DNA of 64,000 bases from Cyanophora paradoxa CCMP329 (Eukaryota; Plantae; Glaucophyta). Made by a program: the position numbers and the translations under genes. Location: the NCBI GenBank assembly GCA_004431415.1, contig QPMI01000165.1, positions 186,001 through 250,000 of the forward strand. The letters are read 5' to 3'. Under the pieces are notes generated by a model. That model was not told the DNA's origin. It did not search any database and saw only the letters and a list, made by a program, of their open reading frames with translations. Of the stretch, positions 1 through 64,000 are shown one piece after another. Position 1 is the first letter of the stretch; every line of letters begins with the position of its first letter.

Positions 1-145
1 CCGCTCGAGGGGCCATTGGTCTGGATTGAAATCATCATGGAGGATGCGGGCCCCTCCATCAAAAGGCTTATCCAGGACAGGCAGATCAGCCTTGCTTCAT
101 CAGAGGGCACTGGAAGGGACCTCATGAGGAGCCTGGTGAGACGAT
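1..145 (+). pseudogene. Protein kinase internal fragment
   Basis: Frame 1 reads LVWIEIIMEDAGPSIKRLIQ, resembling kinase subdomain V; cut near 145. Confidence 0.4.
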
Positions 146-645
146 GGCCCCCTCCACACATCCGTTGAGCGGGCTGGAGCCCGGGGGGCAGCCGTTGGCA
201 CACGTGCCGTCCGTGGAGCAGATGGGCTTCCCCTGCCCCTCCGTGCACCCGTTCAGGGGGCTGGATCCGGGGGGGCAGCCGTTGGCACACCTGCCGTCGG
301 TCGAGCAGATGGGCCCCTCGGCGCATCCACTTAGGGGGCTGGAGCCGGGGGGGCAGCCGTTGGAACACCTGCCGTCTGTGGAGCAGATGGGCTTCCCCTG
401 CCCCTCTGCACACCCGTTCACGGGGCTGGAGCCGGGGGGGCAGCTGTTGGCGCACCTACCGTCGGTGGAGCAAACCGGTTTTCCCTGCCCCTCTGTGCAC
501 CCGTTCAGGGGGCTGGAGCCCGGGGGGCAGCCGTTGGCACACCTGCCGTCGGTTGAGCAAATGGGCTTCCCCTGTCCCTCTGCACACCCATTCACGGGGC
601 TGGAGCCCGGGGGGCAGCCGTTGGTGCACATGCCGTCGCATGTTG
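146..645 (-). repeat. Coding Cys-rich tandem repeat (87-bp/29-aa unit, about 6 copies), fragment of a surface protein
   Basis: Repeated CxNGCPPGSSPxNGCxEGQGKPICSTDGR. Confidence 0.85.
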
Positions 646-686
646 ATTGTCTGTCGCCCAGCGCTGAAAAAAAGTCGCACGTACAC

Positions 687-1225
687 CTAGGACCGCCACT
701 TGATCCGCTCCTGCAGGTCGCGTTCGTCGTCGATCGAGACGCCGCCCCCGTGCCACCGCCTGAGGATCTCGAGGGCCGGCCCGTCGTAGTAGCCGCTGGC
801 CAGCACGGAGCGCCGGACGTCGCGCGCTGTCACGCGGCTGAAGGCGTCGTGGACCGCCAGCGAGACGTTCAGGCGCCGCCGCCGCATCAGGGCGGAGATC
901 CTGCGCTTCACCTTGCCGAAGATGCGCTCGATCGGGTTGAACTGCGGCGAGTAGGGGGGCACGTAGTCCAGGGGGCTCGTCTGCTTGCCGTGGCGGTCAA
1001 GCCGCGGGCGGGGGTCCCGCCCCAGGAGGACGCGGGCGAGCTCCGGGATCGCCGGGTCGTTGGGGTTCGCCGCCGCCCTCGCCGGGATGCCCCCCACGAT
1101 CCCGTTCCAGTTGGCCTTCTTGTCGTGGTAGGAGGCCCCGTCCATGATCAGCACCTTCCCCTCGACGAACGACTGCGGGAGGACGCTCGCGATGAAGTCC
1201 CTGAACCACGGCTTCGTCTTGCTCA
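687..1225 (-). mobile_element. IS630/Tc1-mariner DDE transposase, C-terminal segment
   Basis: VLIMDGASYH and YVPPYSPQFNPIERIFGKVK motifs; the N-terminal part of ORF 687..1721 is an unrelated segment. Confidence 0.85.
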
Positions 1226-1721
1226 CGGGGTACCCGTAGTTGTCCTCCTTGTGTATCAGGAGGCGGGCCTTGCCCCTGCTCCAGCGCCGGTCGCGGCGGC
1301 CCGGCCTCGCCGCCTTCTGCCGCGACGCTGGGCTCATCCACTCGAACGGTTCTTTCTCCAGGAACATCTCCACCATCATCTTCCTGTCCATTTCGTCCAG
1401 CCGTTCGTCGGGGTCCGGGTTGCCCTCCTCTCCCCCCCTTGCGTGCTTCTTCACCCACATCATGGAGAGGAACTTCCGGACGTTGCCGATCGGGAACGGC
1501 CGCCCCGGCCGCCTCTTTCTCAGCTGCTGCAGCACCCATTCGCGGTTATTCCGTGCCCACCCCGTCACCACCGCCGCCTGCCCGGCGTCCTCGGAGGGGG
1601 GCTGGGGCACATTCTGTGGCTTCACCTCATCCCCGCTGCCGGTGCCGGCGCCTACATGCTCCCCGACAAGACCGCCGTCGCTCCTGTTCCGGTTTGCCAC
1701 CGGCACCTCAAGTTCTGCCAT
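1223..1721 (-). pseudogene. Hypothetical gene 5' segment; continues at 17289 (+)
   Basis: Ends YGYPV; 7-bp overlap CCCGTGA with 17289-17295 gives YGYPVTSEVTGK in frame. Confidence 0.6.
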
Positions 1722-1749
1722 GGCATATCCTCCCTCACTTTCTCACAGG

Positions 1750-1960: not shown

Positions 1961-2073
1961 CCGGTCGAGGCGACCTAACTTTTTAGAAGACACTTAGCAG
2001 CGAGCTCTTAGGTACCTCTTTAGCTCGCCGGCCGCCGCCGCTGCCGCGACCGCCGCCGCCCGCCTGACGCGGC

Positions 2074-2600
2074 TCGCCTGCACGGAAGACCACCCCCCTG
2101 GAATTGCACTCGATGGTGACGGCATCGGCGATCGACTTCATGTCACGGATGTTGTGCTGGAAGTCGACGGCGTTCATGTTGATGACGAACTCGAACTCAC
2201 GCTCGGGGATCTCCAGCTGCTCCTCGTCGATGTCCATCAGGCACAGGGAGTATACCTTGTCGATGTTCTTGTCCTCGTTCCTGATGCGGATCTCGAGCTC
2301 GGGCGTCGCAGGGTCATACGCCAGCGTGAGGACCTCATTGACGGCGACCGTCTTGATGATGGCGTGGAGGTTCATCATGTTCAGCCCGAGGACATGGTTC
2401 CCAACACACGTGTACTCCTCGATGTTGTCCTTGGGGAGCGAGACGTACACAAGGCAGACGTGGGCGCTGTCCATCGCCGCCACGCGCACCCCCTCCTCCC
2501 CAAAGGTCATGTTCACCTCCGTGACAATGTCCTTGACGGCCTCGACCAGGCTCTTCACCGCCTGGACCTGCGTCGTACGGAAGACGAATCCGCGGGCCAT
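2074..2600 (-). pseudogene. PCNA: PCNA sliding clamp, 5' segment (about 175 aa)
   Basis: KSLVEAVKDIVTEVN...AMDSAHVCLVYVSL...YSLCLMDIDEEQLEIP; cut after VVFRA. Confidence 0.92.
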
Positions 2601-5830: not shown

Positions 5831-6103
5831 CTACGCAAACCGAATCACGACGAGCCCGTTGCTGCCATAGGCGTGGTTTGGACCGCCCACGCCCGCCGCT
5901 TCGACGTAGTCGCCGTCCTCCTGCATGGGGGGCACCCTGCGATTTCCGGTCACGGTGTAGCCCTGGGTCACCCCGGCGCCTCCGATAAAGCCCGAGCCGC
6001 CCGAGGCCCCCGACCAGCTCGAGCCGCCGCCGAAGTAGCCGCCGCCGCCGCCGGCCACCCAGCTGGTGTTCGGCCAGCTGCCGCCCAGGTAGGCGGAGCC
6101 CGC
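5831..6103 (-). pseudogene. Gly-rich domain protein, 3' segment
   Basis: GGGGGYFGGG...GGSGFI...GSNGLVVIRFA*; preceded by segment 17441-17635. Confidence 0.8.
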
Positions 6104-8839: not shown

Positions 8840-9057
8840 CTACTCGCCTGCGCGCGGCCCCGGGGGGAGGCGCCGGAGGGAGAGGGCGTTTAAGACGGCC
8901 GCGTATAGGAGCCAGGTACCGTAGGGGATGGTGCAGAAGCGCAGGCGGTGGCCGGTGAGGCGGTCGATCTCGTAGAGGGTCCAGAGCATCGCCAGGATGA
9001 GCACGAGGGCGGGGCCGGGGCGCCGCGCGGCGAAGAAGGTCGGGGTCCAGGCGTAGT
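8840..9057 (-). pseudogene. tspO: TspO/MBR protein, 3' segment
   Basis: YAWTPTFF...ALVLILAML...IPYGTWLLYAAVLN. Confidence 0.85.
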
Positions 9058-15356: not shown

Positions 15357-15648
15357 ATGGTCGCGCCGGCGGCCTCCTGGCGCCGGACGGCGGTGATGCG
15401 CTGGATCCACGACAGCGGCTTCTCCGTGAAGGACCAGAAGTCGGCGACGCACCTGCTCATGACCGGCGGCAAGATCCGCATCCCGCCCGAGCGCGAGGAC
15501 GAGTTCCTCGCGCGCTACGCGGCCGACGTGGCGCTCGGGCACGGCCAGCTCTTCTTCGTGGAGAAGCGCACGCCCGTCTTCCGCCTCTTCGCCGACCTGG
15601 ACTTCCTGGACGACCGGCCCTACGACCTGGCCACCGACGTGCGCCCGT
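15357..15648 (+). pseudogene. NCLDV A468R-like archaeo-eukaryotic primase, 5' segment
   Basis: THLLMTGGKIRIP...FFVEKRTPVFRLFADLDF. Confidence 0.8.
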
Positions 15649-17440: not shown

Positions 17441-17635
17441 GCCCGCCGTGCCGTACCCCCCGTGCGTTGCGCCGCCCGCGGTCTGCGTGCCCCCAAAAGC
17501 GCCGAGGTTCGATCTCGCCCCCTGCAGGCCGCCGCCGGCCCCTCCATTTGAACCGATGTAACCCCCGCCGCCGCCGCCGCCGGCTGTGATTAGATCGGCC
17601 ACGGGCGCTACACCGACCTTGAAGAGGCCCCCGAC
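17441..17635 (-). pseudogene. Gly-rich domain internal segment
   Basis: LITAGGGGGGG...GGTQTAGG...GYGTAG; pointer GCGGGC to 6103. Confidence 0.8.
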
Positions 17636-24200: not shown

Positions 24201-24359
24201 ACGACGGCCCCTCGCCGCCATCACGGCCGGGGGCCACTCCCTCGGCGGCGCGATGGCGCACATCTGCGCCCTCGACCTCGCTGCCAACTCGACGCGCGGC
24301 CTGGGGGCGCCCCGCACGCGGATCGGGGCGTACTCGTGGGGCGCCCCCGCCGCCGGCGC

Positions 24360-24998
24360 GGCCACCTGGATGCAGCTCGCGGGGATGATGCCGCCGTTCG
24401 CGTCCTGGCCGTACGCCGAGTTGTAGAGGTCCTGCTGGAACTTCCAGCAGGCGCACTCGGGCTTGGTGGGGTTCGACTTGCAGTGCGTGTCGATCTTGGC
24501 GTTCAGGAGCGCGTACGACGAGGGGAACTGCGTCACCCCCGTCTTGAGGTACATGTTCGACCAGCGCGCGCACCGGGGGTCGGTGATGTTGACCCCCTCC
24601 GAGCAGATGCGGGGCATCTGCTCGAGGCACCACCCCTGGGTCACCCGCCGCGGGTCCTGGCCCGTCTGGTCGACGCACGCGCTGGCGCAACTGTACTTGA
24701 TCCGGATGGTCTTGCCTTCGCCCCAGGCGGGGTCGCCGGCGACGGCGCTCCAGGAGCTGGTGTGGCCCCCGTACGCCCCGCTGACCCACGGGCTCAGGCT
24801 CTCCCCCTGCCAGCCCACCGCCGGGTCGGTCATCCTGTCCTGTATGGCCTTCGTGAGGTCAATGTACCTGGAGGACGACCCGTAGTGCGCCTGCGTGACC
24901 ACGGGGAAGGGGCACTGGAACCGGATGGTGGCCCCCGCCCCGTCTTCCGACCCCGTGAAAGTGAGGTCGAGGGGGGTGATGACGGCAGGGCTCATCAT
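24360..24998 (-). pseudogene. Lectin-like plus poxvirus A16/G9-like Cys-rich protein, 5' segment; continues at 52292
   Basis: QAHYG...GDPAWGEGKTIRIKYSC then CARW...HCKSNPTKPECAC. Confidence 0.55.
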
Positions 24999-25257
24999 TA
25001 TTATTGGTGTGTCGTACTTGTTGCTACTACAGCAAATAAATAAACGACCACTAGAGCCCCAGAAACCCCGGGTCCGACTCCAGGAAGGCTCGCACAGGCC
25101 GGGCGGGCCGGGGACCCTCTTGACGAAGAACTTGGCGTGCGCCATGCAGTACCGCCAGAACTGCGTGGGGCCGCAGCTGCCGTGGAACCAGGCCCGGCAC
25201 CGCTTCTTCGTCACGTTGCCGTTCTTGTCCTTGGTTGGAGCACGTGGTGGCGTCACG

Positions 25258-25492
25258 TTGGAGCTACGGCTGAAGCTCCTGGCGCGCTTCTTCGCCGAGG
25301 GAGACCACTGGGCGACCTTTCTGGCCGCCGTGGCCGGGAAGCGCCCGGCGGCGGTGGGCGGCGCCGGCGGCGGCGGAGAAGACGAGGAGGAGGAGGAGGA
25401 GGAGGAGGAGGAGGAGGAGGAACGGCAGCAGACCGTCTCCCTCCGCGCGCTGGACTGGCTGGTCACCAACTACTCCAAGAAGCACAACACCG
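25258..25492 (+). pseudogene. Conserved NCLDV protein fragment
   Basis: VSLRALDWLVTNYSKKHN motif. Confidence 0.7.
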
Positions 25493-25759
25493 CCCCGGCA
25501 CCGGCGGCGATTCAAATTGAGTGATTGGCATGTTTAGATGTTGAACGAGGGGGGGCCGGCGGCGAGGGTGGGGGCAGCCGGGGAGGAATCCGCCGCCGCC
25601 TTGTGGGCCTTCTTGGGGGACGAGGCCTCGTCGCTTGCTGGGTCCGCCGCGCCCTTGCGCGCCCGCGCCTTCTTCGGGGGCTTCGGGCCGCCCTCCGAGC
25701 CGCCCTCGCCCTCGCCTGCGCCCGCGCCGCCGCGAAGGATGAAGCGGCCCTTCTCGTCG

Positions 25760-26887: not shown

Positions 26888-27872
26888 ATGTGTGCATACA
26901 TTACAGAGGTACGCATACAAAATTAATTGCGGCTCTACTCCCGCGAGTCCAGGGGGGAGGCCCGCGCCGAGGCCCGCGAGGCCCGCGAAGAGGTCGCGCG
27001 CCTCGAGGTCGCCCTGGAGGCGGCAACGGTGGAGGTTGAGGCGGCCCGCGAGCGGGAGGCGGCGCTCCTGGCCTCGGCGTGGGAGCGGGGCGCCCACCAC
27101 GGGCCCACCGCGGACGGCGACCAGGACTGCCTGGACCACCCCGAGGCGGCGGCCGACCCACACGCTTCCCCGAGGTGGTCTTCGTCGTGGTCACGGAGAG
27201 AATACCGGCCTTCTTGGGGCCGCGGCCGTGGACACCGACCGCGTTCTGGTACCGGATCCACTGGGCCAGAGTGGTGCGCTTGCCGCTGGGGTAGGCGTAG
27301 TAGGTGGCCCCATTTGCGCGACGTTTGCGTTGAATGGGCGCGCGGGCGGCCGCGGTCACGGTCCAGGTGCGGCCGTACGCAGCCTTCGTCGGCTTCTGAG
27401 CGACGATCGCGCTCTGCCGGAGGCCCTTCTTCAGGCCGATAACGCCCATACGGCGGTGGCCGCCGCTGGTGAAGTAGACGCGCTTGACGCGCGAAAGGCC
27501 GGCGTAGCGCCACCGCCGCCCCCGGAGCCGGCGGCGAACGCAACCCCGCCCACGGCGGGGCACTCCCTGCCGCCACGCAGGGCGCCGGCCGTCCCATCGT
27601 CGATGATCTCGCTTCTGGCACAGCGGCTGGGGGCGGCGCCGCCCGTGGGTGGGCCCAGACCGGGCCCGTCTCCACGGGGCGGGACCACCGCGGCCACCGC
27701 CGCCGGTGGCGACAACACCGCCGCGACCGCCGCCGCCGGCCAGATTACCCTCAAACGCCCCCCCGGCCCCCCTCGCACTAGTGCCCCCTCGATCGCATCC
27801 TTTCTGAACGTAGAGGTTTCCAAAAGGGTGAAGAAATCCCTCTGAAACCAGTCTTTGTGTGACACTACAGAG

Positions 27873-31554: not shown

Positions 31555-32030
31555 CATCCTCTCGGACCCCGCCCTGATGTACCTCCCCGCCGACCTGACC
31601 GCCGTCGGGCAGGTCTGCCGCGCCTGGCGCGCCTGGCCGGGGGCCCGGGAGGAGCTCGCGGCGGCCGCCCTGAACGCCGCGCTGGGGCTCGGGCCTGAGG
31701 ACCCCTGCCCCCTGGAGCCCTGGGCGCGGGCCGGCTACCCGGGCGGGCTCGAGGGGCCCTCCGGGACCTCGAGGGCCGCCCCGGCCAGCCGAGCGCCTCC
31801 CTCCTCCGCATCCGCCACCTCCTGTGGGAGGAGGGGGCAGCCTGCCCGGCGGCGGCGCCCTGCGCTACCCGATCCGGGCCGCGTCGGCGGCGGAGGCGAA
31901 CGCCGCCGTCGAGGCCGAGGTGGCGCGCTTCGTCGCGGCGGGGGACGCTGTCGAGTCCGGGCTGCTCACGGGCACCGGCGCCGGGACGGCCCTGGGCCTC
32001 GCCGCCGCGTGGCAGCTGACCACGCGCGGC
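31555..32030 (+). pseudogene. F-box protein segment
   Basis: DLTAVGQVCRAWR; two G-run frameshifts. Confidence 0.5.
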
Positions 32031-32202
32031 CCCGTCGGGCGCCCTATCGTCCGTTTCATGTACTACCCCGACCAGGAGGACGAGGTCTCCCTCGACGGGT
32101 CCCCGTCGGATCCGGAGTAGCGTAGGCGCATGTCATTGTTAATGCAGTCCAGCAGTGCGCGTACTGGTCGCCGCGCGTCCGGGCAGTCGTCGGATTTCTG
32201 CA
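32025..32202. repeat. 178-bp exact inverted duplicate of 48999-49176
   Basis: Direct reverse-complement identity. Confidence 0.95.
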
Positions 32203-32721
32203 GTCCCACTCTAGTGGAGGCCGCCGCCGCCATGGCCCTCAGCTCTGATGCCTGCCCTGCCCCGCCTGTGCATGTTCGCATGCTGCTGCTTCTATATAGG
32301 CTGAACTGCCTCCGCTTGTGAGAACATGATTCTAATGCACTCCACTGCACGCCGCCCGCCCCCCCCCCACCGCCCTCCACACCGCCCCACTCAGCCCACC
32401 CAGCCCCGCGGCCCTCCCCCCTACCCTCCCCTACCCCTCCCCCGGGCCCCTCCCCCCCTACCCGCCCAACCGCTATGAACCACTTTCACAGCTGGGAACC
32501 GGTTGTGCTTTCCGAAGGCATCTGCAGCCTTAAGAGACGACCGCCGAGTCTGCTGTGGGAGGAAGCATAGTAATTCACGATGGGGGCCGCGGTCTCCTGG
32601 AACAGGACCACGCCGTAGTGGTACGCCCAGTACGCGGGGTCCCCCGCTGAGTAGGGGTTAACGGGCCCGTCGCCTCCGCGGCCACCGCCGCCGCCGCCGC
32701 GGTCCAGCAGGCGCTGATAGC

Positions 32722-33893: not shown

Positions 33894-36800
33894 CTAGAAC
33901 CTGTACCCCCTCCGAGCGCCCCCCCGCCCTCCTAGACGGCTTCCTCGGCGGTGCATACCCCCCTCCGGCTCGGGCCGCCACGCAGCCACCGGCGGCGGCG
34001 GGCGAAGGGGCGGCGGCGGCGGCGGCTCGGCTCGCCAGGCGGCCGGCGACGGCGGGCCAGGGGGCACCGGCTGCGGCTCGGCTCGCCACGCGGCCACCGG
34101 CGCCGGCGGCGCCGGCGGGCGCTGTGCGGGCGGTGCCGGGCCCCGCCCCGCCGGTGGGCGAAGAAGGGGCGGCGCCGGGGCCGGCGCCGGGGGCGCCCCC
34201 ATGCTGTACCCCATGTACACCCTCCCGAGCGCCGCCTCGAGGTCGTCCAGGGTCCACGGCCGGCCCGGCCGCCGCCTGAGGAAGTGCCTGATGTTGGCGT
34301 CTTCCAGCGCCCCGGGCCCGCCCCCCAGCCGGTCCATGCAGTGGTCCGGCGGCATCAGCGAGTTCGACGCCGACGCGAGCGGCCTCAGGTGGTCGGCCCG
34401 CACCCGGCAGTGGACCGCAGTTTGGCCCTGGCCGTACATCGTCTGGCCCCTGGCGATGATGTCGGCCGCGAGCGAGGCCAGGCCGATCACGTCGAACTCC
34501 TCGTCGCACCGCATGCAGGGGGTGCGCGGGCGGTCGGGGACGTGCTCAAGGTGGGCCCCGGCTCCGGCCCCGCCGGCTGTGTTCGCCTTGGCGATCTCCT
34601 CGGCCACGCACTCGTGGGGCAGGAACGCGCCCCTCGTCGGGGGCTCGCTGCCGGGGTCGAGCGCCCCGCGGAGGCGCCCCGGCAGCTTGCTGTCGCCGCC
34701 GCCTCCGGATGCGTTCTTCAGCGCGCCGCCGCCAAAGTCAAGGAGGACGAGCCTGCGCGCCGCCTCGAGGGGGTTCTCGTTGATGTTCAGGGGGGCGTAC
34801 TGCCCCGGCCGCGGAGGGAGGGGCCGGATCCCCACGTTCTCGAGCTTGAGGTCGCAGTGGGTGAAGCCGGCCAGGTGCAGGGCGCGGACGGCGGGGATGA
34901 GGCGCAGGACCGCCGCCAGGGCGAAGAAGACGAGGTTCCCGTGCTCCACGCGCACCCTGCCCCCCTTGATGGCATCCATCTCCTTCTTGAGGTCCGCGCC
35001 CTCTTGGTCGTCCCCCGGCCTCCTGCCCGGCGCCAGCTGCAGGAGCTCGGAGATCACGCAGGGGGCGGGCGCCCCCCTGCCCTGGTTGTTCGCGCCCCAC
35101 CCGATGCGCGACGGGCGCTCCAGGGTCCAGCCGAGGGTATTCGGGAGGGCGGGGGCCGCCCTGCGGGAACCGCCGCCGCCGATCAGCTCGCGGGCCCACG
35201 GCTTCCCCGCGGCGAGGTCGGCGTCCTCGATCCGAATGAGCGCGTTGAAGGCGGCCATCGCCCCCGCCAGCTCGAAGATCGCGTCCCGTGCCCCCGCCTC
35301 GGGGTCGTACGGGAGCTTGACGGCGACTCTCCGGGGGCCGTATTCCGCCACGCAAACCTGGGCGTTCTTCCCCCTGCCCAGCTCCTGGTTGAAATCGATC
35401 CGGATGCTCCCGGGGTTCACGTACAGGGACCCCTGCCCCAGCTGGGCGAGGGCGTTCCCGATGGGCGTGCCCCGGACCCCGGGAGCCTCCGAAACGAGCC
35501 TCCACCAGCCCATGCAGTCCTTCGCAGTGACGGGTTCCTTGACGTAGTCGCGGGTACGACCGCCGGCCCCGAACAGCCGGCCCACGCCGGACGCGAACGG
35601 AATGCGGAAAGACGCCGCGGGTGTGGTCGGGCTCGGGCGCCTGCTCATCTCCACGGGCCCAACTGGGCGTGCCGCCACTGGGCGCCTGCTCGTCGATCTC
35701 TCCAGGCCTTGGGGCGCGACTGTGCGAGCTGTCGCACGCGGATCGCCCGCGGCGGTACTCCCGCTCCTGATCCAGGGGTGGTTCTCCATGGCCCGGAGCG
35801 TGCGCGTCCGCCCTCTGTCGCTCGTGTACATGAGGAAGTCGTACAGGAACTTCTGCAGCGCCGGAGAGGCCTCCCCACGGGTGCACTTCGAAGGGTCTTG
35901 CTGTCCCATGCCCAGGGAGGGCGGACTGAGGCGAATGCCAAACAGCATTGCCATCGTTAACGAGCACGTCGGGGAAACGCCGGCGATCCTCCCGTCGGGG
36001 TGGATATCAGTAGGCTCCCATAATGGCACGCCCGCCGGCAGTGTCAGCCCGAGAACGATCGCTGCGATCTGGTACACGAGCCTTGCCTCGTCGCATTGGC
36101 AGTCGGGGGCCGAGTGGCCGTAGGTAGGTCTCCCGTCCGGGTAGAACATGCACTCGGGGTTGACGAGGGTCGTGGCGTAGTCCGTGCTGTGTTCGCCATT
36201 GATGCCACGTATCCACACGTCCCCAAAATCTATAAGGACCGGCGTCATCGTGGAAGCCGAGCGGCGGAGCCCAATGTTCATTGTCTTGAGATCACAGTGC
36301 CGGATGCCGCCGTCGCCGTGGGCCGCTCCCAGGAGCCGGCAGCCCTCTACGAGCTGGAGCACTATCCGCTTGAGCTCCTCCTCAGACAATCGACGAGCCC
36401 CCTGGCGCGGTTTTCCGTCGTTTTCCGTCGGTCGCAGGTCATGAAGTGTACCGTAAAGCCTCTCCATGACTATGGCAGGGGACGGGTCCGCGCCAAAGGT
36501 GGTGTAACCCAGAACCCGCATGATGGGGGCCGCGTCCCCCCGGTCAAGTGCAGCGGCATGTGCAGCCAGCGGAACGCACAGCTCGCGGACGACATCAATG
36601 CCTACAGCTGGGGCCACGGAATTATAACTGGATGCCGCAGCCGGGGCAACGGACCCAGCCCCGCGACCCGCCTGGCGCTCGGGCGGTTTGGCTTGCTTCA
36701 CAGCCACTTCCTGCCCCTGGTACGTCCCCAGCACGACTTTCCCAAATGATCCCGTGCCTAGCACGTTTTTTGCAAACACCCGGACCTTGTTCGAATCCAG

Positions 36801-36932
36801 CCTGAAACCTCCCTCCAGGACCTTCATTAGCACCCCGACTAGGTGTGAGTTCTCCGCCGTGAACCCGGCGGCCTTCAGCCTAGCGTATGCCACCTCGCAC
36901 TGGGCGCGGACAAGGGGCGGCACAGGGTCCAT
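33894..36932 (-). CDS. Intact tandem Ser/Thr protein kinase (two domains), 1012 aa
   Basis: LGTGSFGKV..VAVK..HCDLKTMNI..DFG and LGRGKNAQV..VAVK..HCDLKLENV..DFG. Confidence 0.9.
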   Translation of the reverse strand: MDPVPPLVRAQCEVAYARLKAAGFTAENSHLVGVLMKVLEGGFRLDSNKVRVFAKNVLGTGSFGKVVLGTYQGQEVAVKQAKPPERQAGRGAGSVAPAAASSYNSVAPAVGIDVVRELCVPLAAHAAALDRGDAAPIMRVLGYTTFGADPSPAIVMERLYGTLHDLRPTENDGKPRQGARRLSEEELKRIVLQLVEGCRLLGAAHGDGGIRHCDLKTMNIGLRRSASTMTPVLIDFGDVWIRGINGEHSTDYATTLVNPECMFYPDGRPTYGHSAPDCQCDEARLVYQIAAIVLGLTLPAGVPLWEPTDIHPDGRIAGVSPTCSLTMAMLFGIRLSPPSLGMGQQDPSKCTRGEASPALQKFLYDFLMYTSDRGRTRTLRAMENHPWIRSGSTAAGDPRATARTVAPQGLERSTSRRPVAARPVGPVEMSRRPSPTTPAASFRIPFASGVGRLFGAGGRTRDYVKEPVTAKDCMGWWRLVSEAPGVRGTPIGNALAQLGQGSLYVNPGSIRIDFNQELGRGKNAQVCVAEYGPRRVAVKLPYDPEAGARDAIFELAGAMAAFNALIRIEDADLAAGKPWARELIGGGGSRRAAPALPNTLGWTLERPSRIGWGANNQGRGAPAPCVISELLQLAPGRRPGDDQEGADLKKEMDAIKGGRVRVEHGNLVFFALAAVLRLIPAVRALHLAGFTHCDLKLENVGIRPLPPRPGQYAPLNINENPLEAARRLVLLDFGGGALKNASGGGGDSKLPGRLRGALDPGSEPPTRGAFLPHECVAEEIAKANTAGGAGAGAHLEHVPDRPRTPCMRCDEEFDVIGLASLAADIIARGQTMYGQGQTAVHCRVRADHLRPLASASNSLMPPDHCMDRLGGGPGALEDANIRHFLRRRPGRPWTLDDLEAALGRVYMGYSMGAPPAPAPAPPLLRPPAGRGPAPPAQRPPAPPAPVAAWRAEPQPVPPGPPSPAAWRAEPPPPPPLRPPPPVAAWRPEPEGGMHRRGSRLGGRGGARRGYRF

Positions 36933-37582
36933 TGGACGTCTTTCACCACATCACACATGGAAAAAATTAGCCTAGCTGCCGGGCCCGCCCCACGACGAGG
37001 GCCCGCGGCCCCGCGATGCGGCGCACGGCCGCGAGCGTCGGCGCGTCCGCGCCATCGGCCGAGAAGACGACGAGGGCCGCCGCCGGCCCCGCGCGTCGGC
37101 CTCCTCGGCCGCCCGCTGCACCCGCCGGAACGCCCGCTCCCCGCCCACGAGGGCGCCCTCCGTCCACTCCTCCAGCAGCCGTGCGCGGCCCCCGGGCCCC
37201 GGGATGTAGAACGTGATCGCCTGGAGCTCCGGATTCTCCTCCATGAACCGCACCACCGACTCGCCGTCGGGGTCGGCGCCGCCGTGCCACCAGCAGTTGC
37301 GGAACTCCAGGTGCGTGGCCCCCCTCATGAAGGGAGGGAACGGAGAGGCACGCGTTCCGTGCGGTGAGCCCCACGGCGTGGCGCACCAGGCTGTTCAGCA
37401 CGCCGGTCACCTCCCTGACCTGGTCCTCGAGGGCGCGGAGGCGAACAAGCGTGTCGGGCGAGGCAGACATGGTTTATATATGCGAGCGTAGGATGGGATG
37501 GGGCGAGAACATTTCGCGGCCCGCGCGTCCGCACCTGCGCCGGGAAAGTCGGGGTTTGGAAGTGCATACGGCGGCGATATCG

Positions 37583-37822
37583 ATGCCAACGAGCTACCAC
37601 CCCGAGCTCGGGCTCCACCCGGCGACCGCCCGCCTGCTGGCCCTGCCTCCCCGCCCCGAGCAGGGCACGGCCGGCTGGCTGCAGCAGCGGGAGGGCATGC
37701 TCACCGCCAGCGACATCCCGGCCGCCCTCGGGGAAAACCCCTACCAGTCCCCAGCCGCCCTCATCCGCCGCAAGCTGGGCCTGGACCCCCCCTTCGAGGG
37801 CAACTTCCTGACGCGCTGGGGT
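37583..37822 (+). pseudogene. YqaJ-like viral recombinase/exonuclease, 5' segment
   Basis: EQGTAGWLQQREGMLTASDIPAALGENPY...TRWG. Confidence 0.88.
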
Positions 37823-38618: not shown

Positions 38619-39259
38619 CTAAACTGGGTGCTCGTTGAAGCGGGGCGGCGTGCGGACTAGGAACACGGGCGGGTCCTGCCTGGCCCTCTTCCGCGGCCTC
38701 GGCGCCGCCTCCTCCCCCTCCGCGACGGCCGCCGCCGGCCGCAGGGCCGCCGCGCGGATCTCGTTGGTCGCCTCCCCCCACTTGTAGTAGACGCTGCCCC
38801 CGAAGCGGCGCGCCACGGCCCGCGTGCTCTCGTTGAAGAAATCCCTCAGCGATGCGACCTCGCCGGCCCAGCGCCGGAGCTCGGCGATCCAGAGGGGGAG
38901 CGCCTGCTTGGGGGGGCCCGCGATGCGCACGGCGAGCAGGTTGTTGAGCAGGTCGATGCCGCACGCCACGAGCATCTGCATGACCTGCACGCGGGCCCGC
39001 ACGCGCTCCCGCCTCCGCTCCCGCATCAGCACCAGGGACTTGAAGCGTTCCTCGGTGAGCTCCTTGGTGAGGTACTTGAGGCGGATGTCCTCGTTCGAGC
39101 GGGGGTTGTACGCCGCGACGTTGGCCGCCGCCCCCTCGATCTCCACGCGCTGGACGTGCACGACGAGGCGGTGCAGCTCCGTCACGGGGCGGACGGCCTC
39201 GTGGACGTGCGGCGGGCCCCCCGAGTCCACGATGTGGGCCACGATGTCCGCAAGGCGCG
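38619..39259 (-). pseudogene. NCLDV RING-IBR (RBR) E3 ligase, C-terminal segment
   Basis: LHRLVVH...NEDIRLKYLTKELTEERFK; abuts segment 56359-56608. Confidence 0.7.
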
Positions 39260-39458
39260 AGCTCCGCCTCGGCCCCGCCCCGGGCCCCCGGCTCCGGCTC
39301 CGGCGCCGGTGGGGGCTCGGGGGCCTTGAGGCGCCCCCGCCGCCGACCGCGCCGAGGGCCTCGCGCGCCGCGCCGGCGAGGCTCATCCACGCGTCGGGCG
39401 GGGCCGGCGCGGCGCTGGCGGCGAGCTCGTCTGGCCGGAAGTCTTCGTCGACCAGCCG
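39254..39458 (-). pseudogene. Segment 2 of the seven-piece gene
   Basis: Pointers CGGCTG (39453-39458) and CTCGCGCC (39254-39261). Confidence 0.7.
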
Positions 39459-39614
39459 ACGGCGCTCAAGATGCGCGCGGGGCTCGTGCACCGGCTGGTC
39501 GAGCGCCTCGGCGAGCGCCCCAGCGGGCACAGCACCGTGCGCGAGGTGCTGGACGCCTCGGTCTACATCGGCAACGGCCTGCGCATGCTCGAGTCGGACA
39601 AGTTCTCGCCGCGG

Positions 39615-40921: not shown

Positions 40922-40990
40922 GCCGAGGAACAGCACATCGAGAAGCACCGCGACTCCTTCACGGTGAACTCCGCCTTGGCGTAGTCGCCT
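40922..40990 (-). pseudogene. Probable second PCNA segment
   Basis: GDYAKAEFTVKES; 6-bp overlap AGGCGA with 2074-2079. Confidence 0.5.
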
Positions 40991-41036
40991 TGAGAGGGGG
41001 GGTCGGGTCGCGAGCGATGTTGCTCGATGCACGTCT

Positions 41037-41662
41037 GCGACCTCTGCGTCAGCGAGCCGGGCCCCATCGGCGAGCGGGCCGCCCTCCTCATCGGGACCCC
41101 GTCGCCGGCCGCGTCGCCCCCCGCGCCCCTCCTCATCCCCCTCGTCTACATGGAGCCGGCGGGGGCCGGCGCCGGGATGCCCGACGAGGACCCCGAGTTC
41201 ATCCGGCTCACGGTGCACGTCCTCGACGCCTCCCGCCCGCCGCTCGTGCGCGCCGTGCGCGCCGCCCGCTCGCCCCACAACTACGCCAGCAGCTTCGACC
41301 TGCGGGCGGCCGCCGTGCTCGCCTCGGGGGACGCCGTGCTCGCGGCCGGCCGCAGCGAGGACGACAAGCTCGTCGTGTGCACGTGCGACTGGAGGGGGCC
41401 GGGGGGGGAGGCGCGCTGGGACTTCCTCCGCATCAACGTCGACCTGCTGGAGGAGCCCGACTGGGCGGGCGGCGCGGGGGACTCGCCCTACGACGCCCCG
41501 CCCCGGTTCCACATCATGCCCCACGCCGCGGGGGCGCACGCCGTGGTGCGCGTCTCCTCCCCGCGCTGGGACCCCTGGGCGGCCTCCGAGGAGGGGGCGC
41601 CCTCGGCCGAGGTCCAGTACTTCCTCGTCCGCATCACGCCCGCCGGGCGGGTCGAGGTGCAC
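41037..41662 (+). pseudogene. Segment 6 of the seven-piece gene
   Basis: Pointers GCGACCTC (41037-41044) and CGAGGTGCAC (41653-41662). Confidence 0.8.
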
Positions 41663-45921: not shown

Positions 45922-46100
45922 CCGGCGCGATAGATATCTTCGACTTGCGATATCCCAAGAACGCGTGCGGCGAATGTAAGCCCGAGGCCGAGGCGAGCGA
46001 GCCGTGCAAGCTGGTGTTCCCGTTCACCGGCCGGGACCAGCTCTGGACCGTGCCGGCGGGGGTCACCAGCGTGGCGGTCAAGATGTGGGGCGGCGGCGGG
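45922..46100 (+). pseudogene. Cys-rich to Gly-rich domain transition segment
   Basis: NACGEC...FPFTGRDQLWTVPAGVTSVAVKMWGGGG. Confidence 0.7.
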
Positions 46101-46123
46101 GTGAGTGGGGCCCGCCCGAACGA

Positions 46124-52375: not shown

Positions 52376-52755
52376 CGGCGACCCGGCCCTCATCGACGAG
52401 ATCGCGCGCACGCACGGCAAAGCCTCGTTCTTCTCCGATGCCGTGGAGGAGATGCGCAACTCCGGCGCCGCCCCGCGGCCGTCCGCGGCGGCGGCGGCCG
52501 CTGCCGCCGCGGGCGGCGCCGATGCCGCCCCCATCCCCGCCGGCGGCGGCATCTGCATGCTCCCCAACACGCCTGCCGTCGCCCAGGCGGCCATACGCGT
52601 CTTCAAGCTCCGGGAGGAGACGGAGGCCGCCCGCGCCAGGCACGCGGAGGCCGACGCGCAGGCGGCCGAGGCCGTCCGGCAGCACGAGCTCGCGGAGGCG
52701 GCGGCGCACCGGGAGGCCGCCGAGGCGAATCGCCGGGGCAAAGAGGAGATTGCCC
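52370..52755 (+). pseudogene. Bro-family protein internal segment
   Basis: GGDPALIDEI motif followed by coiled coil. Confidence 0.5.
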
Positions 52756-53175
52756 GAGCTCCTCTTCGTGCGGGAGAGGGCGCTCCTCCCGGGGACGCAG
52801 CGGGCGCTGGAGGCGCAGCGCGAGTCGCTCGAGGAGCGGGCCCGGCTGAAGGAGGCCATCATCGAGTCGGTGCGGCTGGAGCAGGCGGCCCTCCGCACCG
52901 AGGCCCGGGCCGTCGGCCTGGCGACCACGTCCGAGGAATACAAGGGGCTCATCGCGCGGGCGCGGGATCTGATGGCCCAGGCCGACCAGGTGAAGAAGGA
53001 GGGGAACGACGCGATTGGCATCGTCGCAGCGGCTGGTGGCGGCGGGGTGCGCGGCATCATCGCCCAGGCGGCGGCGGTGGCGACCTCCTCGGCTGCCGCC
53101 CGCTTCCCATGCCCCGGGCAGGACTGCCGTGGGTTCATGGGCCGCCGCCTCCGCGGCGTGCGCAAGTGCGGGGCC
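52755..53175 (+). pseudogene. RBR E3 ligase, pre-IBR segment
   Basis: ELLFVRERALLPGTQ...FPCPGQDCRGFM...KCG. Confidence 0.75.
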
Positions 53176-54076: not shown

Positions 54077-54109
<33 letters not shown>

Positions 54110-54670
54110 TGCGTCGGCTCGTCCCGTCCGTCTGACGGCCGGCGGGGGCGGGGGCGGCCGGCGGCCGGCGGCGTACTGCCGTAGGCGGCGTTCGCGGCCG
54201 TTGTGACCGCGGCGATGACAGCCGCGGTCAGGGTCTCTGGCTGGTGGCGGGACCGGCCGGGTCTGGCGGGACCGGCCGGCGGGCGGGATGCTCGCTGCGA
54301 AGGAGGTGCGTGTCGGGTTGTCGGCGTCGAGGTGCACCAGCAGGGGTGGGAAGGAGAGCTCGGGTCTCCCAGGGACAACCGATTTGGAGCCGTATACGTC
54401 GACCTCCTCCTGCCACATCCGGTGGTGCGTTTGCCAGGACATGAGAAATGTCCGCGTGGGGCACAAGAAGTTCCGTTCCAGCCTTTTTGCGTGAGGCGGC
54501 CCTAGGGCCCGATGCTTGTCCCCGCCCCGCCTGTTTCTGGCTGATTTGTTGCAATCGAAGCAAATCGGACGCGCCCCAAAAATCTCATGCACATGCGGCC
54601 CCCCTCGCGATTTTTTTCTCTGCACTAGTGTGCAACCCATATATAGGCCCGCGCTCGCCTGTCCCTCACT

Positions 54671-55010
54671 ATGTCCGGTGGTTCGTTGACCCATCTCGCC
54701 GCCGTCGGCGCCCCCGATGCGTACCTTTTCGGTGCGCCGGCGGTCACCTTCTACAAGGGCGTGTACCAGCAGCACACCAACTTCGCCATGGAGTTCATGG
54801 AGACGACCTTCAACTCGGCCAACTACGGCCACAGCGTTACCGCCGAGATCATCCGCACCGGCGACCTCCTCTCGAGCATGTACCTCGTCCTGAAGATCCG
54901 CCCGCTCCTCAACGGAAGCAACACGGGCAGCGTCTTCTTCGTCGACAAGCTCGGGTACGCCATCATCAACAAGATCGAGCTCTCCATCGGTGGCACCCTC
55001 ATCGACACCA
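54671..55010 (+). pseudogene. MCP: NCLDV major capsid protein, N-terminal segment
   Basis: LAAVGAPDAYLFGAPAVTFYKGVYQQHTNFAME...RTGDLL...IELSIGGTLID. Confidence 0.95.
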
Positions 55011-55922: not shown

Positions 55923-56359
55923 ATGGCGTGTCACATGATGCGCGCGCCGCAGATCATCATCGCCGAGGGCGGGGTTGGGCGCGCCGCGCGCGTGCTCGGC
56001 ATGCACATGGCGATCCTCGGGCTGGTCGACCCCGCAGACCCCCTCGTCGACTTTGACATGTGGGTGGCGCTCCGAGGCGACCTCCGCCCGCCGCCGGCCG
56101 CTTCGGATCTGGCGGCGGCGCTGGCGGCGGCGGCCCGGGGCCCGCGGGGCGGATGCCGCGGCCCGCCCCGCCCTCGCACGTGCCCGTCGTCGGGCAGCCC
56201 GCGGGACCGCCGCCACCGCCGCCCCTCCCATCGTGGCCCGGCGACCTCGTCGCCGCCCTGCTGGTCGGCCTCGTGCCGGCGTGGGGCGCCGCCCCGAGCG
56301 GCCTCCCCGACCCCGACCAGGAGGCGCGGGCCCTGCTGGCGGCGCGGGGGCTGCGGCTG
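55923..56359 (+). pseudogene. Segment 1 (5' end) of the seven-piece gene
   Basis: ATG at 55923 (or 56153); ends ARGLRL; pointer CGGCTG at 56354-56359. Confidence 0.6.
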
Positions 56360-56608
56360 CGGGAAGCCGCCGCACGGGACGTCCCCCCGCGCCCGGTCCA
56401 GGCCGCCGTTGCGCCGGTACCAGTCGTAGTAGTGGGGGTTGTGCACGACGCCCTGCTCGACCCTCCCCGTCTTCCACGAGAAGGCCGTGTGGCAGGCCGT
56501 GCACCACATCTGGTCGCAGCCGCTGATCTTGAAGATGAGGGCGCGGCACGAGGGGCAGGACTTGCAGTCCCGCAGCATGGTGGAGACGGAGGCGGCGACG
56601 TCCGGGTC
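56359..56608 (-). pseudogene. RBR E3 ligase, RING2 segment
   Basis: KSCPSCRALIFKISGCDQMWCTACHTAFSW...HNPHYY...DVPCGGFP. Confidence 0.9.
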
Positions 56609-56794
56609 ATCCCGAAGCGCCCAATCTATGTCTACTCCTTCGCCCTCGACCCCGAGGACTGGCGCCCGACGGGGACCCTCAACTTCAGCCGCATCAACGA
56701 GGCGCTGCTCAAGTTCAACATGCCCGTGGGCGACAACGGAGAGCCCGCCACGCCTGCCGGCGAGATCTTCATCTTCGCCCGCTACGTCAACATC
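56605..56794 (+). pseudogene. MCP: NCLDV major capsid protein, near-C-terminal segment
   Basis: IYVYSFALDPEDWRPTGTLNFSRI. Confidence 0.92.
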
Positions 56795-58082
56795 GGCGCC
56801 GTGCTGAGCTCCAAGGCCGAGCCCAACGTCGTGCTGGACTCTGGCGTTCTGCGCGCGGGCCTGGAGCGCATGGGGGTCGACGCGGTGGACTCGGCCCTCC
56901 AGGAGCTGGAGCGCGCGGGGAGGGCGGACCGCCTGGCGCCCGCGTCCGAGTTCCGGCGCCTGCTGGACCGCTGGCTGACGGCGCAGACGAACGACGAGTG
57001 CTTCGACGTCCTCGCGGACCCGATCGGCCGACGGGTACCCGCCTTCTTCGACGATCGCCGGCAGCAGCCGCGCACGCGCGTGCTCGCCGAGTGGCTGAGG
57101 GTGCTGCAGGGTCGCGGTACGTCTGCAGCCGTGCGGGGGTCATGAGGATGCAGCAGCAGCAGGCGGCCGCCCGCGCGGCAGGGCACTGGCACCATGGCCA
57201 CCAGTTCAACTATTGACACACACACACACACACACTAGGCGAGGGAGGGCGGGTCCACGCGGCGGCGGCGGTGGCGCCGCACCGCGGTCGCTTCCGCCTC
57301 CGCCGCCGCCGCCGCCGCCGCCGGTCTCCTCTCGAACCGGCGGGCGGCCGGTCCGCAGCGGCCCACGCCCGCCGCGTCGCCGGGTCGGCGGCGCTCGGCG
57401 CTTCGTAGCGCTCGAAGGAGCCCGACGAGACGCTGCTGCTCACGTCGTCGTCGCTGTCGTCGCAGGCGCCGGCGGCGCCACTGTCGGCGCTCCGGCGGGC
57501 GGCGCGGCGGGTGCGGCGCTGGCGCGCGCGTGCGCGCTCGCGCTCCAGGGCGGCCCGTCCTGGCACGGTCCCGATCGGCCGTGCAGGCGGGTAGGCAGGG
57601 AGCGGGCGGGTCTGGCTGCTGACGATCTTCAGCCGCCCGAGGGCCTCCAGCTCGGCGTGCGCGTCCGAGTCGGTCTCTGTATCGTCATCCTCGACGTCGT
57701 GCGGCGCCGCCGCCGCCGCCGGCAGGGGCAGCGCCATTTGCGGACGGACGGACGGGGGTCCGTGTCGGTGTACCCCTTCCCCACCTCCTCCCCGCCGCTC
57801 CCGGCCGCGCTCCCTGCCGGCCCGGGCTCGGATGAGGGCACAATGGACGCCTCGGACAACTAGGGCGGCCGCCAACCACACCCTCACCCCCGCCCCCGGC
57901 TGGGGCGGAGGCGGGTCCCTCCATTCGTCCGGGCGGTCGGCGATGAATACAACCCGACCCCCCGCTTCCCGCCTCGCGCGGAAGACCGTTTCGTGCATTA
58001 TTGTTCATTCTGTGATAAAAACAGACCCGCGCCCGCGCCCCTGCGAGCTTTTTCGCACACACACACACGTAATTATCGCACC

Positions 58083-60088: not shown

Positions 60089-60571
60089 ATGGCCGGGCCC
60101 CCGGCGCCCCCCGTGCCCCGCATCCTCTTCCAGACGTGGAAGACGCGCGAGGTCCCCGAGCGTTGGCGCGATGCGCAGGCCTCGGTCGTTCACGCACACC
60201 CCCACTGGGAGTACCGCCTGCTCACCGATGAGGACAACGACCGGCTGGTGGCCGAGCACTTCCCCGAGTTCCTGGCCCGCTTCCGCGGCTTCCGGTACCC
60301 GATCCAGCGCGCCGACGCGATCCGGTACGTTGTACTGTACGTCTTTGGGGGCGTCTACCTCGACCTCGACTACGTCTGCGTGCGCCCGCTCGACGGCGTC
60401 CTCGAGTCCATGCCGGCGGACCGCTCGGTCGGGCTCCTGGCCAGCGCAAACCCCGGGGCCGTCACCACCAACTCCATGATCGTCGCCCGCCCGGGCTCCC
60501 CCTTCTTCCTCGAGTGCATCCGCCGCATGCAGCGCCCGCGGCCCTTCTGGGCGTGCACGCGCCACGTTGAG
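60089..60571 (+). pseudogene. GT32 DXD glycosyltransferase, 5' segment
   Basis: PRILFQTWK...QRADAIRY...GGVYLDLD. Confidence 0.9.
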
Positions 60572-60698
60572 GGCGAGGTTCAGGAGGAACAGGAGCACGA
60601 CGGGGTCGTGGCGGGCGGGGCGGCCGGCCGGTGCCCGTGCCGCGGCGGCGGCGAGGGCCAGGGCGATCAGCACGTAGAGGATCCCCCACGCGATGGGG
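60566..60698 (-). pseudogene. tspO: TspO/MBR protein, middle segment
   Basis: PIAWGILYVLI...LFLLNLALN. Confidence 0.8.
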
Positions 60699-61184
60699 TC
60701 TTTGACGGCGGCGACGGGAGGCTGCTGGAGGCCCTCGAGGTGGCCACGACGCCGCGCCTCGCCAGCCCCTGGTACCTCCTCTGCCTGCCGGGCTCCTCGC
60801 CCCCCTCGCTCCTCGCCCACGACGGCGCAGGGGGCGTGGCGATCGCCCCCATCGAGGTCGTCTGGGCGCTCGCCGGCGCCGGCCGGGCCAGCATGGAGCC
60901 AGTGCTCGTGGCCAGCATGGAGTCCTACGCCACGGGCAAGGAGCTGCTCACCGTCCAGTCATTCGCCAACTACTTCTCGCGCGCCTACGCCAGCCCGTCG
61001 AACCGCTACGACCCGCGCGGCGACCGGGAGGCGGCGGCCGCCAAGGGGCTCGGGCGCCTGATGATGCGCGCGACGCTGGACGAGTTCGCGGGCGACGGCA
61101 CCGCCGTCCTCGAGTTCGCGTCGGTGGCGGCGGCCGCCGTGCCGCACCTGGAGGCGGCCTACGGGCTCGTCCCCGCTTTCAGGG

Positions 61185-62170
61185 CGTCCTCCTCCGCCTG
61201 GGCGGCGCGGAGGACCTCGCCGCCGCGGCCCGCGGGTGCGAGCGGTTCATGGCCAACAACAACCAGCAGACGCCGCCCCCCTCCCGCTCAAGCGCGACGT
61301 CATCGAGCTCGCCATGCGCCGCATGATCGCGCGCTGGGCCACCCTCTCCGGCACCGGCGGCGGCCTGCAGCAGCCGGCCGAGCCGGCCGTCGCCTCGCCC
61401 GCACCCGGAGCCGGCTGCGGCTGCCCCTGCCCGGCACCGGCAACTGCGGCCGGAGCCGGCGTCGTCCCGCTCGCGGCCGCCGCCGTGCGCCGCGCCGCCG
61501 CCGCCGAGGAGGAGGCGGTCGCGCTCCTCCTCGCCAAGAGCCCCTCCCCCTACGACCGGGCCGACCCGGTCCTCTGCGAGCGCATCCGCGCCCTCGAGCT
61601 CCTCAGCCGCGGCGAGCGCCACGAGGCCGTGCGCATCGTGCGCGACCACTGCGGCTGGCGGCCCCTGGGGCCCAACGTGCGCATGGTCACCGAGGGCCTC
61701 CTCTTCTCGATCGAGCGCGGCGCCGGGCGCGACCTCGGTTTCGCCGCCGCCTTCCGCGAGCAGCGGGACGAGATCTCCGCGGCCGCCGACGAGATGGCCC
61801 GCTCGCTGGCGGCGGTGCCCCTGGCCTGCGGCGGCGACCCGGCCGGAACATGCCCCGCCCCCGCCCTCCTCCTCCACGCCGTCCAGACCTGCAACCTGGC
61901 CCGCGAGTGGGCCGAGCGCGGCGAGGCCGAGGCGCTCCTCCGCCTCGAGGCCGCCGAGACGGCCGTCATGCGCCTCGCGGGGGCGGCCTTCCAGCCCTGC
62001 GCCCGCCCCGCCTGCGGCGCCCACGTGCCCCTCTTCCACTACGAGCGCTACTACTTCCCGTGCGGGATGCACTTCCTCTGCGCGGCCTGCCACCGCAAGG
62101 GGCTGGAGGAGCGCCGGGGGGTCCGGCGAGGCGACGCCTGGGAGTGCCCCCAGTGCCCCCCCGGGATGGG
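61185..62170 (+). pseudogene. RING-finger protein segment
   Basis: FPCGMHFLCAAC...ECPQC. Confidence 0.6.
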
Positions 62171-62315
62171 CGGGGGCCCGGGCGCAGGCGGCTGCTGCTG
62201 GTCCCGCCCCCCCCAGCGCATCGTGCTCGAGCCGTGAGTGAGGCGGTTAACCAGCCGCCTGGCGCCGCCGGCGCGGCGCGCGGCGTGTATATATGTATCG
62301 ATGAATCTATTACAA

Positions 62316-62414
62316 TTATTACGAACAGTAACCCTACTGGGGCGGCCGGGGCAGGCGCCGCGGGTTATTACGAACAGTAACCCTACTGGGGCGGCCGGGG
62401 CAGGCGCCGCGGGT
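62316..62414. repeat. 49-bp perfect tandem duplication spanning a stop codon
   Basis: TATTACGAACAG...CGCGGGT at 62317 and 62366. Confidence 0.95.
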
Positions 62415-63145
62415 AAAGTGGCTGGCGGCCACCAGGGGCTGTGAGCATGAAGTAAACCACGATTTCCCAGCGGCTCGGTTGTACTAAGCCCGCCACCTGA
62501 ATCTGGTGCGGCATTTGGAATCGCGCCAGATCGAGAAGTCGGTCGTACGACGAGTCGAACCACGCCTGGTCCCGCGCATCGACATGCCCCGTTGACCCAG
62601 GGATGTACCGGCGGCCGGATCCGGAGCCCTGCTGCCATGCCGGGTCCCCTTGCGACGCAGGGTCCCTGAGCGCGCTGCCTCGGAGGGGGACGACGATTGT
62701 GATGATCGAGGTCAGCGGGCCGCCGAGCTTCTCGAGGACTCGTGGGGTTCCGCGCGGCGCCTGGCCGGCGGGGATCGGAACGGCGTAGTACCAGATGGTG
62801 AGCCTCTGCTGGATAGCGTCAGATGCTCTGTCCCATCCGAGGGGCGGCAGCCCGTACGCCTCTGTCAGCCAGCTGTCAACGTCGACCTCTTGGGGGTGTT
62901 CCGTCGGCACGAGGGCTGCAGGTGGTGGTGCCGGCAGCGAAAACCCGTCCGCGCAGAGGTGCGTCGTGCTCAAGAGCAGCGCGCGATGTTCAAGTGGGGC
63001 CCTCCCAAAAGGCCATCGCCCGCCGCGCTCCCGCAACACGAGATCGCGCACGCGGCGGTCCAGTCCTGTCCAACACTCGTACCTCCATGTACCCTCGCCC
63101 TCCACGGTCCGATAGTATCGGTACTCGTTCTTCGCGTCCACAAGG
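62383..63145 (-). pseudogene. Unknown paralogous family, 3' segment
   Basis: PLRG..DARDQAWFD..ARFQMPH..WEIVV, shared with 22052-22335. Confidence 0.6.
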
Positions 63146-64000
63146 GCAGCCGAGTTCGACGCCCAGTGGGGGGCCGCCGCGGACGACGAGGAGGAGCCCG
63201 AGGAGACGCCCCCCGCCGAGATCACCGATGCCTTGACGAGCCGCTCGTCGTCATCGTCAGCGTTGTCGTCGACAGCGGCAGCGACGAAGTGGCGCCAGAC
63301 GGCGACCTCGCCGGGGCCGAAGCCGGCGTCGAGGCGCGGGGCGCCGGCGGCCCCGTCGGCGGGGCTCACGGCGACGTCGGCCTCGTGGAAGCCGGCGGCG
63401 CCGTAGGTGGTCTCGATGAGGCGGCAGGAGACCGAGGCGAGCGGGGCCCCCCGCACCGAGTAGTAGAGCGCGATCGAGAGCAGCCGGTGGCCGAGGTTGC
63501 GCACCGGCTGGGATGCCTCGAGCCCGACCTCGAACGAGGCGGCGCGGGGGTTGCGGAGCGCCCGGAAGCAGCGGGCCAGGAAGGGGCGGCTGCCGTCGAC
63601 GACCGCCGGCCCGCGCTCGACCGCCGAGGCGCCCCCGGGCCCAACGAGACACACGGCGTGGCGCGCCCCGGAGACGAAGCGCGTCTGCACGACCTGCGCG
63701 GCGCTGAAGAGGTGCTCGTCGGGGCGGGCGAGCGTCAGGGCGAGGCCGTCGACGGAGGCCGAGTACAGGGGCCGGCCGGCGGCCCTGTCGTAGGCGCCGA
63801 AGGCGGCGAGCCGGAGCTCGGCGAGGAGGTAGAAGGGCCCGCGGAAGGGCGCGGGTGCGGAGACGTAAGTCTGGGAGACGAGGTCGAATCGGGGGGCGGT
63901 GGCCTCCTCCGCCGGCTGTAGCGCCGGCATCTTCCCCTCCTCCCAGCCGCCCACACGGTGCTCCAGGGTGGGCTTCTCGTCGCCGGCGTACGTGGGGGCG

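Follow-up and report, generated by a model that had tools for sequence, protein, structure and literature searches.

How did the genes of a giant virus come to lie in pieces, on both strands and far from one another, in the genome assembly of the glaucophyte Cyanophora paradoxa CCMP329? The window analysed here comprises 64,000 nucleotides (assembly GCA_004431415.1, contig QPMI01000165.1, positions 186,001 to 250,000 of the forward strand), numbered from its first letter. It likely represents an endogenous genome of the Nucleocytoviricota, the genes of which occur in dispersed pieces. An initial annotation of its breaks had proposed either a latent virus stored in scrambled form or a host process that shatters viral DNA. 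We consider it probable that the viral genome underwent a chromothripsis-like, nearly copy-neutral fragmentation and was rejoined by end-joining.

Profile searches revealed five genes with pieces at separate sites: TspO, a RING-IBR ligase, a primase-like AEP, the major capsid protein and a glycine-rich domain.

60560..60721, minus strand: TspO, first piece (Pfam PF03073 30-83, E 9e-4)
8885..9057, minus strand: TspO, second piece (Pfam PF03073 82-141, at 9055-8885, E 2e-7; within the contig 5337-9595 described below)
52741..53148, plus strand: RING-IBR ligase, piece 1 (profile 72-208 of 464, E 9e-8)
56345..56611, minus strand: RING-IBR ligase, piece 2 (profile 236-320, E 3e-47)
38796..39259, minus strand: RING-IBR ligase, piece 3 (profile 330-451, from 39224, E 9e-16)
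15429..15617, plus strand: primase-like AEP (C962R type), first piece (profile 8-69 of 355, E 1e-13)
39402..39602, plus strand: AEP, later piece (profile 106-163, E 6e-9)
54668..55009, plus strand: major capsid protein, N-terminal piece (Capsid_N 1-93; profile 25-139 of 449)
56606..56809, plus strand: major capsid protein, near-C-terminal piece (Capsid_NCLDV 114-151; profile 362-426)
46029..46112, plus strand: glycine-rich domain, N-terminal piece (profile 18-45, E 7e-11; Gly_rich_2 7-30)
17441..17632, minus strand: glycine-rich domain, middle piece (profile 123-178, E 5e-9), ending in GCGGGC
5846..6103, minus strand: glycine-rich domain, C-terminal piece, starting with GCGGGC and collinear with the middle piece against L122 and L139

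The pieces lie up to 52 kb apart (the distance between the two TspO pieces), are inverted in some cases, adjoin unrelated pieces and contain no internal stops. These five genes bear out the initial annotation in that genes break off mid-domain, abut unrelated segments and continue elsewhere, at distances of up to about 50 kb and in cases inverted. The first TspO piece adjoins a truncated glycosyltransferase tail to tail at 60560. The ligase, with a profile built from the 60 of 80 fetched virus loci that had a long frame, is split into three pieces representing both strands, the third of which has a frame open upstream and a start that may reach about 39430. The two capsid pieces are separated by 1.6 kb of unrelated pieces, and the near-C-terminal one stands head to head with ligase piece 2. 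About 36 AEP residues between the two AEP pieces were not found in the window by sub-profile search. The scores of the glycine-rich middle and C-terminal pieces against L122 and L139 are additive (105 and 98 combining to 186). Across the window, 91 well-scoring coding pieces have a median length of 342 bp, compared to 750 bp in intact virus loci, and the strand changes between 56 of 90 neighbouring pieces, compared to 401 of 1019 in intact virus loci, the methods differing in both comparisons. The many clustered breaks, in random order and orientation, are as expected of chromothripsis-like shattering.

The viral identity is indicated by a Pfam profile scan, which found the Nucleocytoviricota hallmarks Capsid_N, Capsid_NCLDV, AEP_C962R and DUF7197, in addition to the viral-type genes PCNA, YqaJ, glycosyltransferases, kinases and an S74 fibre. 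These hallmark genes fit a giant endogenous viral element (GEVE) of the Nucleocytoviricota. The ligase is 55-64% identical to homologues in 80 IMG/VR loci. No close viral relative was found in the searched sets, where the capsid piece reached at most 51% identity to 149 other matches, and among the longer proteins the sole match was the window's own protein. The G+C content is 70% along the whole window, CpG is not depleted (ratio 1.05), Rfam gave zero matches, and no virus-host border was seen within the 64 kb.

An assembly or amplification artefact is hardly credible as the origin of these junctions. All sampled words of 2000-11900 were present in 20 of the 24 runs listed, these being DNA runs from 20 studies. 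Independent short-read contigs of two runs (X19 and X4) match 600-5281, 5337-9595, 9611-12108 and 12120-18276 with zero differences at a depth of 96-114 and span the PCNA, TspO, AEP and glycine-rich breaks in 600-18276, along which the depth is even. Contigs of two further runs (X18 and X1) run across 41653 and 53148. The junctions are therefore no assembly chimera, and the contigs pass through them unbranched; the locus depth (91-114) is within the range of other contigs in the same runs. In favour of an artefact, the 20 runs all belong to one organism and one year, and possibly go back to a single strain. Moreover, the window has 1-bp errors against short-read contigs near 18440 and at 19658-19851, so that some same-strand frame switches are false breaks. 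At 100% likeness, much of 38000-57900 was without long pieces among the contigs listed, and none of these crossed the junctions of the capsid pieces or of ligase pieces 2 and 3. Two RNA-like runs yielded no long piece of the locus, and no RNA run with the locus was among those listed, which carries no evidential weight.

Eight junction pairs were looked at in detail; the initial annotation had merged about 17 on an overlap without loss. At a fixed register, chance gave at least 2 bp in 75-82% of trials and at least 6 bp in about 1%. The TspO pieces overlap by 2 bp, which is the chance level, with no residue lost at the register given by homologues. The glycine-rich middle and C-terminal pieces overlap by 6 bp at the register of the ungapped match (p about 0.01), in low-complexity sequence. 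The overlap without loss described in the initial annotation is partly borne out by these two pairs and fails for the 6-bp word of PCNA.

2085..2600, minus strand: PCNA, N-terminal two thirds (PCNA_N 7-124, PCNA_C 2-45 of 128; profile 3-167 of 247)
40950..40995, minus strand: candidate 40-bp PCNA continuation (homologue motif, rank 3 of 110,686 windows)

The PCNA coding sequence stops short near 2080, and the candidate continuation was missed by the PCNA sub-profile search. Merging on the 6-bp word leaves the spacing one codon shorter than in 8 of 8 matching homologues, and at the right spacing the two ends share 2 bp. At the join of ligase pieces 2 and 3 a 6-bp word is present, with a register free over about 200 bp. 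Only one of three registered pairs exceeds chance, whereas ciliate scrambling places a direct repeat at every pair. Likewise, nothing like the eliminated spacers (IES) of ciliates separates the pieces where junctions were examined; at 60560, 24360-24366 and 56606-56611 they adjoin one another directly.

Two longer words join candidate pairs.

41653..41662, plus strand, and 11008-10999, minus strand: 10-bp word CGAGGTGCAC, candidate reciprocal exchange, no homologue, unproven
27154..27164, plus strand, and 46121-46131: 11-bp in-frame word, candidate pair, no informative homologue, unproven

The word CGAGGTGCAC does not keep to the main coding frame of the downstream piece. Beyond it, at 41653-41680, 7- and 5-bp words from the partner's downstream sequence recur, which we take to be reminiscent of templated insertions by polymerase theta. 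The 7-bp words at 24366/52292 and 24209/53506 are candidates as well. For the 9-bp word GCATCCGCA at 7612 there is probably no break, the native frame continuing to code (7.3 nats versus -0.1 for the antisense).

The initial annotation had generalized such words into a pointer rule of 2-10 bp, which the overlaps do not bear out. Blind pairing by codon bias with words of 5-9 bp gave an in-frame to out-of-frame ratio of about 1:1.4-1.5, hence no signal. Blind comparison of 52 open ends with 54 open starts showed no excess of long in-frame shared words: at 17 bits or more, there were 4 in frame at the junctions, compared to 8.4 for displaced-end controls and 5 out of frame. Consequently, most pointers of 7-11 bp are indistinguishable from chance, which suffices here to produce in-frame words of 9-11 bp. 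The four-arm test at k=9 gave a weak excess (16 versus 8.25), confounded by codon phase. These blind tests are low in power, most partners probably lying outside the window.

Outside the tandem-repeat genes, only three clear duplicated blocks were found, of 32, 54 (a near-copy) and 178 bp, which suggests that the locus, as far as the 64 kb show, is mostly a partition of one copy.

32025..32202, plus strand: exact 178-bp copy of 49176-48999 (minus strand), probably an extra inserted copy
32527..32558, plus strand: exact 32-bp inverted copy of 42166-42197, a long overlap or a templated insertion

The 178-bp block seems to hold a junction, with a start-less piece directly after a stop codon, and the copying is perhaps a later event. 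Its interpretation as a long overlap was dropped, as coding continues past the first copy (9.9 nats) and not past the second.

How, then, would the pieces have been generated? In the reading that we favour, a single viral copy would have been broken up at about the time of integration or shortly thereafter, giving fragments of about 40 bp to 3 kb with blunt or staggered ends that left neighbours sharing 0 to about 10 bp. Host end-joining would have ligated the pieces to unrelated ends in random order, and a few stretches may have been copied afterwards. The shared words would then be repair scars rather than guides, and the outcome would be one-way, the viral genome being inactivated for good. 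Shattering with staggered ends and rejoining, the second proposal of the initial annotation, fits what could be examined. It is favoured by the widely varying overlaps (2, 2 or 6, and 6 bp) and by the other two arms of TspO, which are both 3'-truncated and face each other, an arrangement that a single reciprocal exchange cannot yield. Several observations weigh against it. Homology fixes the register in only two adjacent pairs, in addition to the doubtful one of PCNA; for many pieces no continuation turned up in the window, and the absence of loss was checked at few breaks. Some pairs look reciprocal, namely 41653/11008 and 17446/6103, without homologue proof, and the four-arm excess, weak as it is, points the same way. 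The 178-bp copy may indicate that there was more than one round. Human chromothripsis rarely shows overlaps of 10 bp or more, according to the available text of PMC12807874, and neither host flank, nuclease nor timing was seen in the window.

Serial reciprocal exchange, in which stepwise inversions and translocations at microhomologies of 6-10 bp leave the same word on four arms, is possible but unlikely. It would explain why the other arms of the CGAGGTGCAC pair would supply a start codon to the start-less piece 10996-11622, why those of the GCGGGC pair are both coding, head to tail, and why the GGTGGCC and CCCTCGC pairs are in frame on both joins. A 6-bp word also stands at or near the join in three of four homology-linked pairs, and several rounds are suggested by the 178-bp copy. 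However, the TspO pair shows no reciprocity and an overlap of 2 bp, the weak four-arm excess is confounded as described, the GCATCCGCA case fell away, and a GT90 link tested for the two reciprocal arms of the GCGGGC pair failed against 310 decoy joins. It is more doubtful still that debris of many viral genomes was captured in an abortive infection and ligated into an array like biolistic lambda DNA, the meeting of ends being then partly coincidental. Piece size and orientation are indeed like those of lambda arrays, 49177-50522 has about double its neighbours' depth and many continuations are missing from the window, but the few duplicated blocks in 64 kb, the even depth over 600-18276 and the exact meeting of the TspO ends speak against such capture. 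Programmed reversible scrambling, in which the virus is kept in encrypted form and put together again at pointers via RNA or DNA templates as in spirotrich ciliates, is very improbable. For it stand the exact TspO ends, the 6-bp overlap at register, the stop-free homologous pieces and the undepleted CpG, and ciliate pointers can be only 2 bp in the portion of PMC5940158 available. Nevertheless, no unscrambled joint was among the joints listed for four DNA runs, from contigs that drop rare molecules and samples that included neither an induced nor a sexual stage; in the best-supported of these joints the shorter side does not exceed 33 bases, and none matches a paired break. Junction contigs are unbranched, the best-proven overlap is 2 bp, the blind test lacks a pointer excess, the PCNA word costs a codon, no spacer separates the pieces and some blocks occur in extra copies, all of which tells against the stored and reassembled virus of the initial annotation. 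We know of no guide system for unscrambling outside ciliates. A lossless division of the integrated genome, by host or virus, into pieces with shared ends that are reassembled under an unsampled condition would mean a giant virus latent in encrypted form and the first pointer-type system outside ciliates; it is a very long shot.

In general, GEVEs degrade through point mutations, deletions, duplications and introns, and their genes stay largely collinear. The window resembles them in its clustered capsid, PCNA, AEP, YqaJ and RING-IBR ligase genes inside a eukaryotic assembly, but its genes are severed and scattered and show little decay by point mutation. The available text of PMC12344493 reports methylated GEVEs in several lineages, including C. 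paradoxa, where they are described as methylated clusters, and the word "fragment" is absent from its main text. A term search of the accessible part of PMC6704402 gave no hit for virus, viral, capsid or scrambl. Chromothripsis, as far as PMC12807874 is accessible, shares pieces end-joined in random order and orientation, insertions of 0.1-1 kb and occasional overlapping breakpoints; by contrast, the substrate here is viral, breaks recur every few hundred bases all along, and all of the cultures sampled have inherited the product. A definition of chromothripsis is given in the available sections of PMC13390643, which rejects it for the Ostreococcus outlier chromosome. After biolistic transformation of rice, shattered lambda DNA, in the available part of 10.1101/379644, gave pieces that ranged from 31 bp to 11 kb and averaged 410 bp, with the four orientations equal and a junction microhomology of mostly 0-4 bp. 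These arrays share short foreign pieces, random orientation and small microhomology with the window, but are man-made from many genome copies, whereas the present locus is natural and mostly single-copy. In Oxytricha, the scrambling of macronuclear-destined segments (MDS) has in common interleaved and inverted segments with repeats of 2-20 bp at paired ends, but requires IES spacers, guidance by RNA and an unscrambled product in the soma (PMC5940158, available text), none of which was seen at the locus. The closest in pattern are the rice lambda arrays and chromothripsis with short insertions, and the locus is a real, unusual architecture that joins two known kinds.

No description of an endogenous giant virus in shattered or scrambled form emerged from a literature search, most subscription papers being outside its coverage. 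Gene-level shattering with little point decay is accordingly a fate of endogenous giant viruses for which we found no published account. If a host process is responsible, it would be an irreversible way of disarming viral DNA, beside methylation. Shattered elements also yield chimeric gene models, two locus proteins already being present as such in EukProt, and evade completeness estimates. With its many junctions at a fixed place in an organism that can be cultured, the locus allows end-joining of foreign DNA in an alga to be measured directly. If true, a reversible system would be of much greater importance, but it has little support.

The remaining gene pieces are as follows.

60110..60560, plus strand: DXD glycosyltransferase, 3'-truncated (profile 29-177 of 281)
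37652..37822, plus strand: YqaJ exonuclease, first third only (profile 37-92 of 260)
24207..24366, plus strand: class 3 lipase, internal piece (Lipase_3 56-110 of 140), its end meeting the end of the cysteine-rich gene 24360-24995 (minus strand)
25252..25494, plus strand: DUF7197, first third only (profile 34-56 of 176)
34173..36947, minus strand: tandem pair of kinase-like genes, about 2.8 kb with no evident break

Window-wide searches with sub-profiles found no continuation for the capsid middle and end, the PCNA C-terminus, the ligase RING and first IBR half, the AEP middle and end, SET, YqaJ, two glycosyltransferases, DUF7197 or the lipase. A nucleoside-kinase link was not significant (E 6), and PHROGs, NCBIfam, further Pfam and Atlas searches added no piece pair. 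A SET-domain-like start was recognized by eye at 48627-48737 (plus strand), with an end at 25765-25920 (plus strand, E 0.11) and a middle that was not found in the window.

A DDE_3 (IS630-like) transposase piece lies at 699-1652 (minus strand, E 6e-10), and an endonuclease VII/HNH domain at 13825-14115 (minus strand, PHROGs E 8e-14) is in frame with an unrelated-looking upstream region. The segment of doubled depth belongs to 49105-50522, which carries an endonuclease-like gene and an upstream cysteine-rich repeat gene. A 2012 run (X21) has small contigs over 49177-49912, and this unit is possibly multi-copy and mobile; the same run has two short exact contigs at 4582-4977, with a depth of 3-5. 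The proteins of 22091-22291 and 62430-62604 (both minus strand) are paralogous (48% identity) and of no named family. The basic, Lys/Arg-rich piece at 27159-27509 (minus strand), without a Pfam match, is perhaps a DNA-binding protein. At 143-638, a tandem array with units of roughly 90-120 bp, cysteine-rich on the minus strand, varies between contigs. Short repeat units are common to 32720-33330 (plus strand) and 48145-48460 (minus strand), the latter running into the S74 fibre domain, and the two are either paralogues or parts of one fibre gene.

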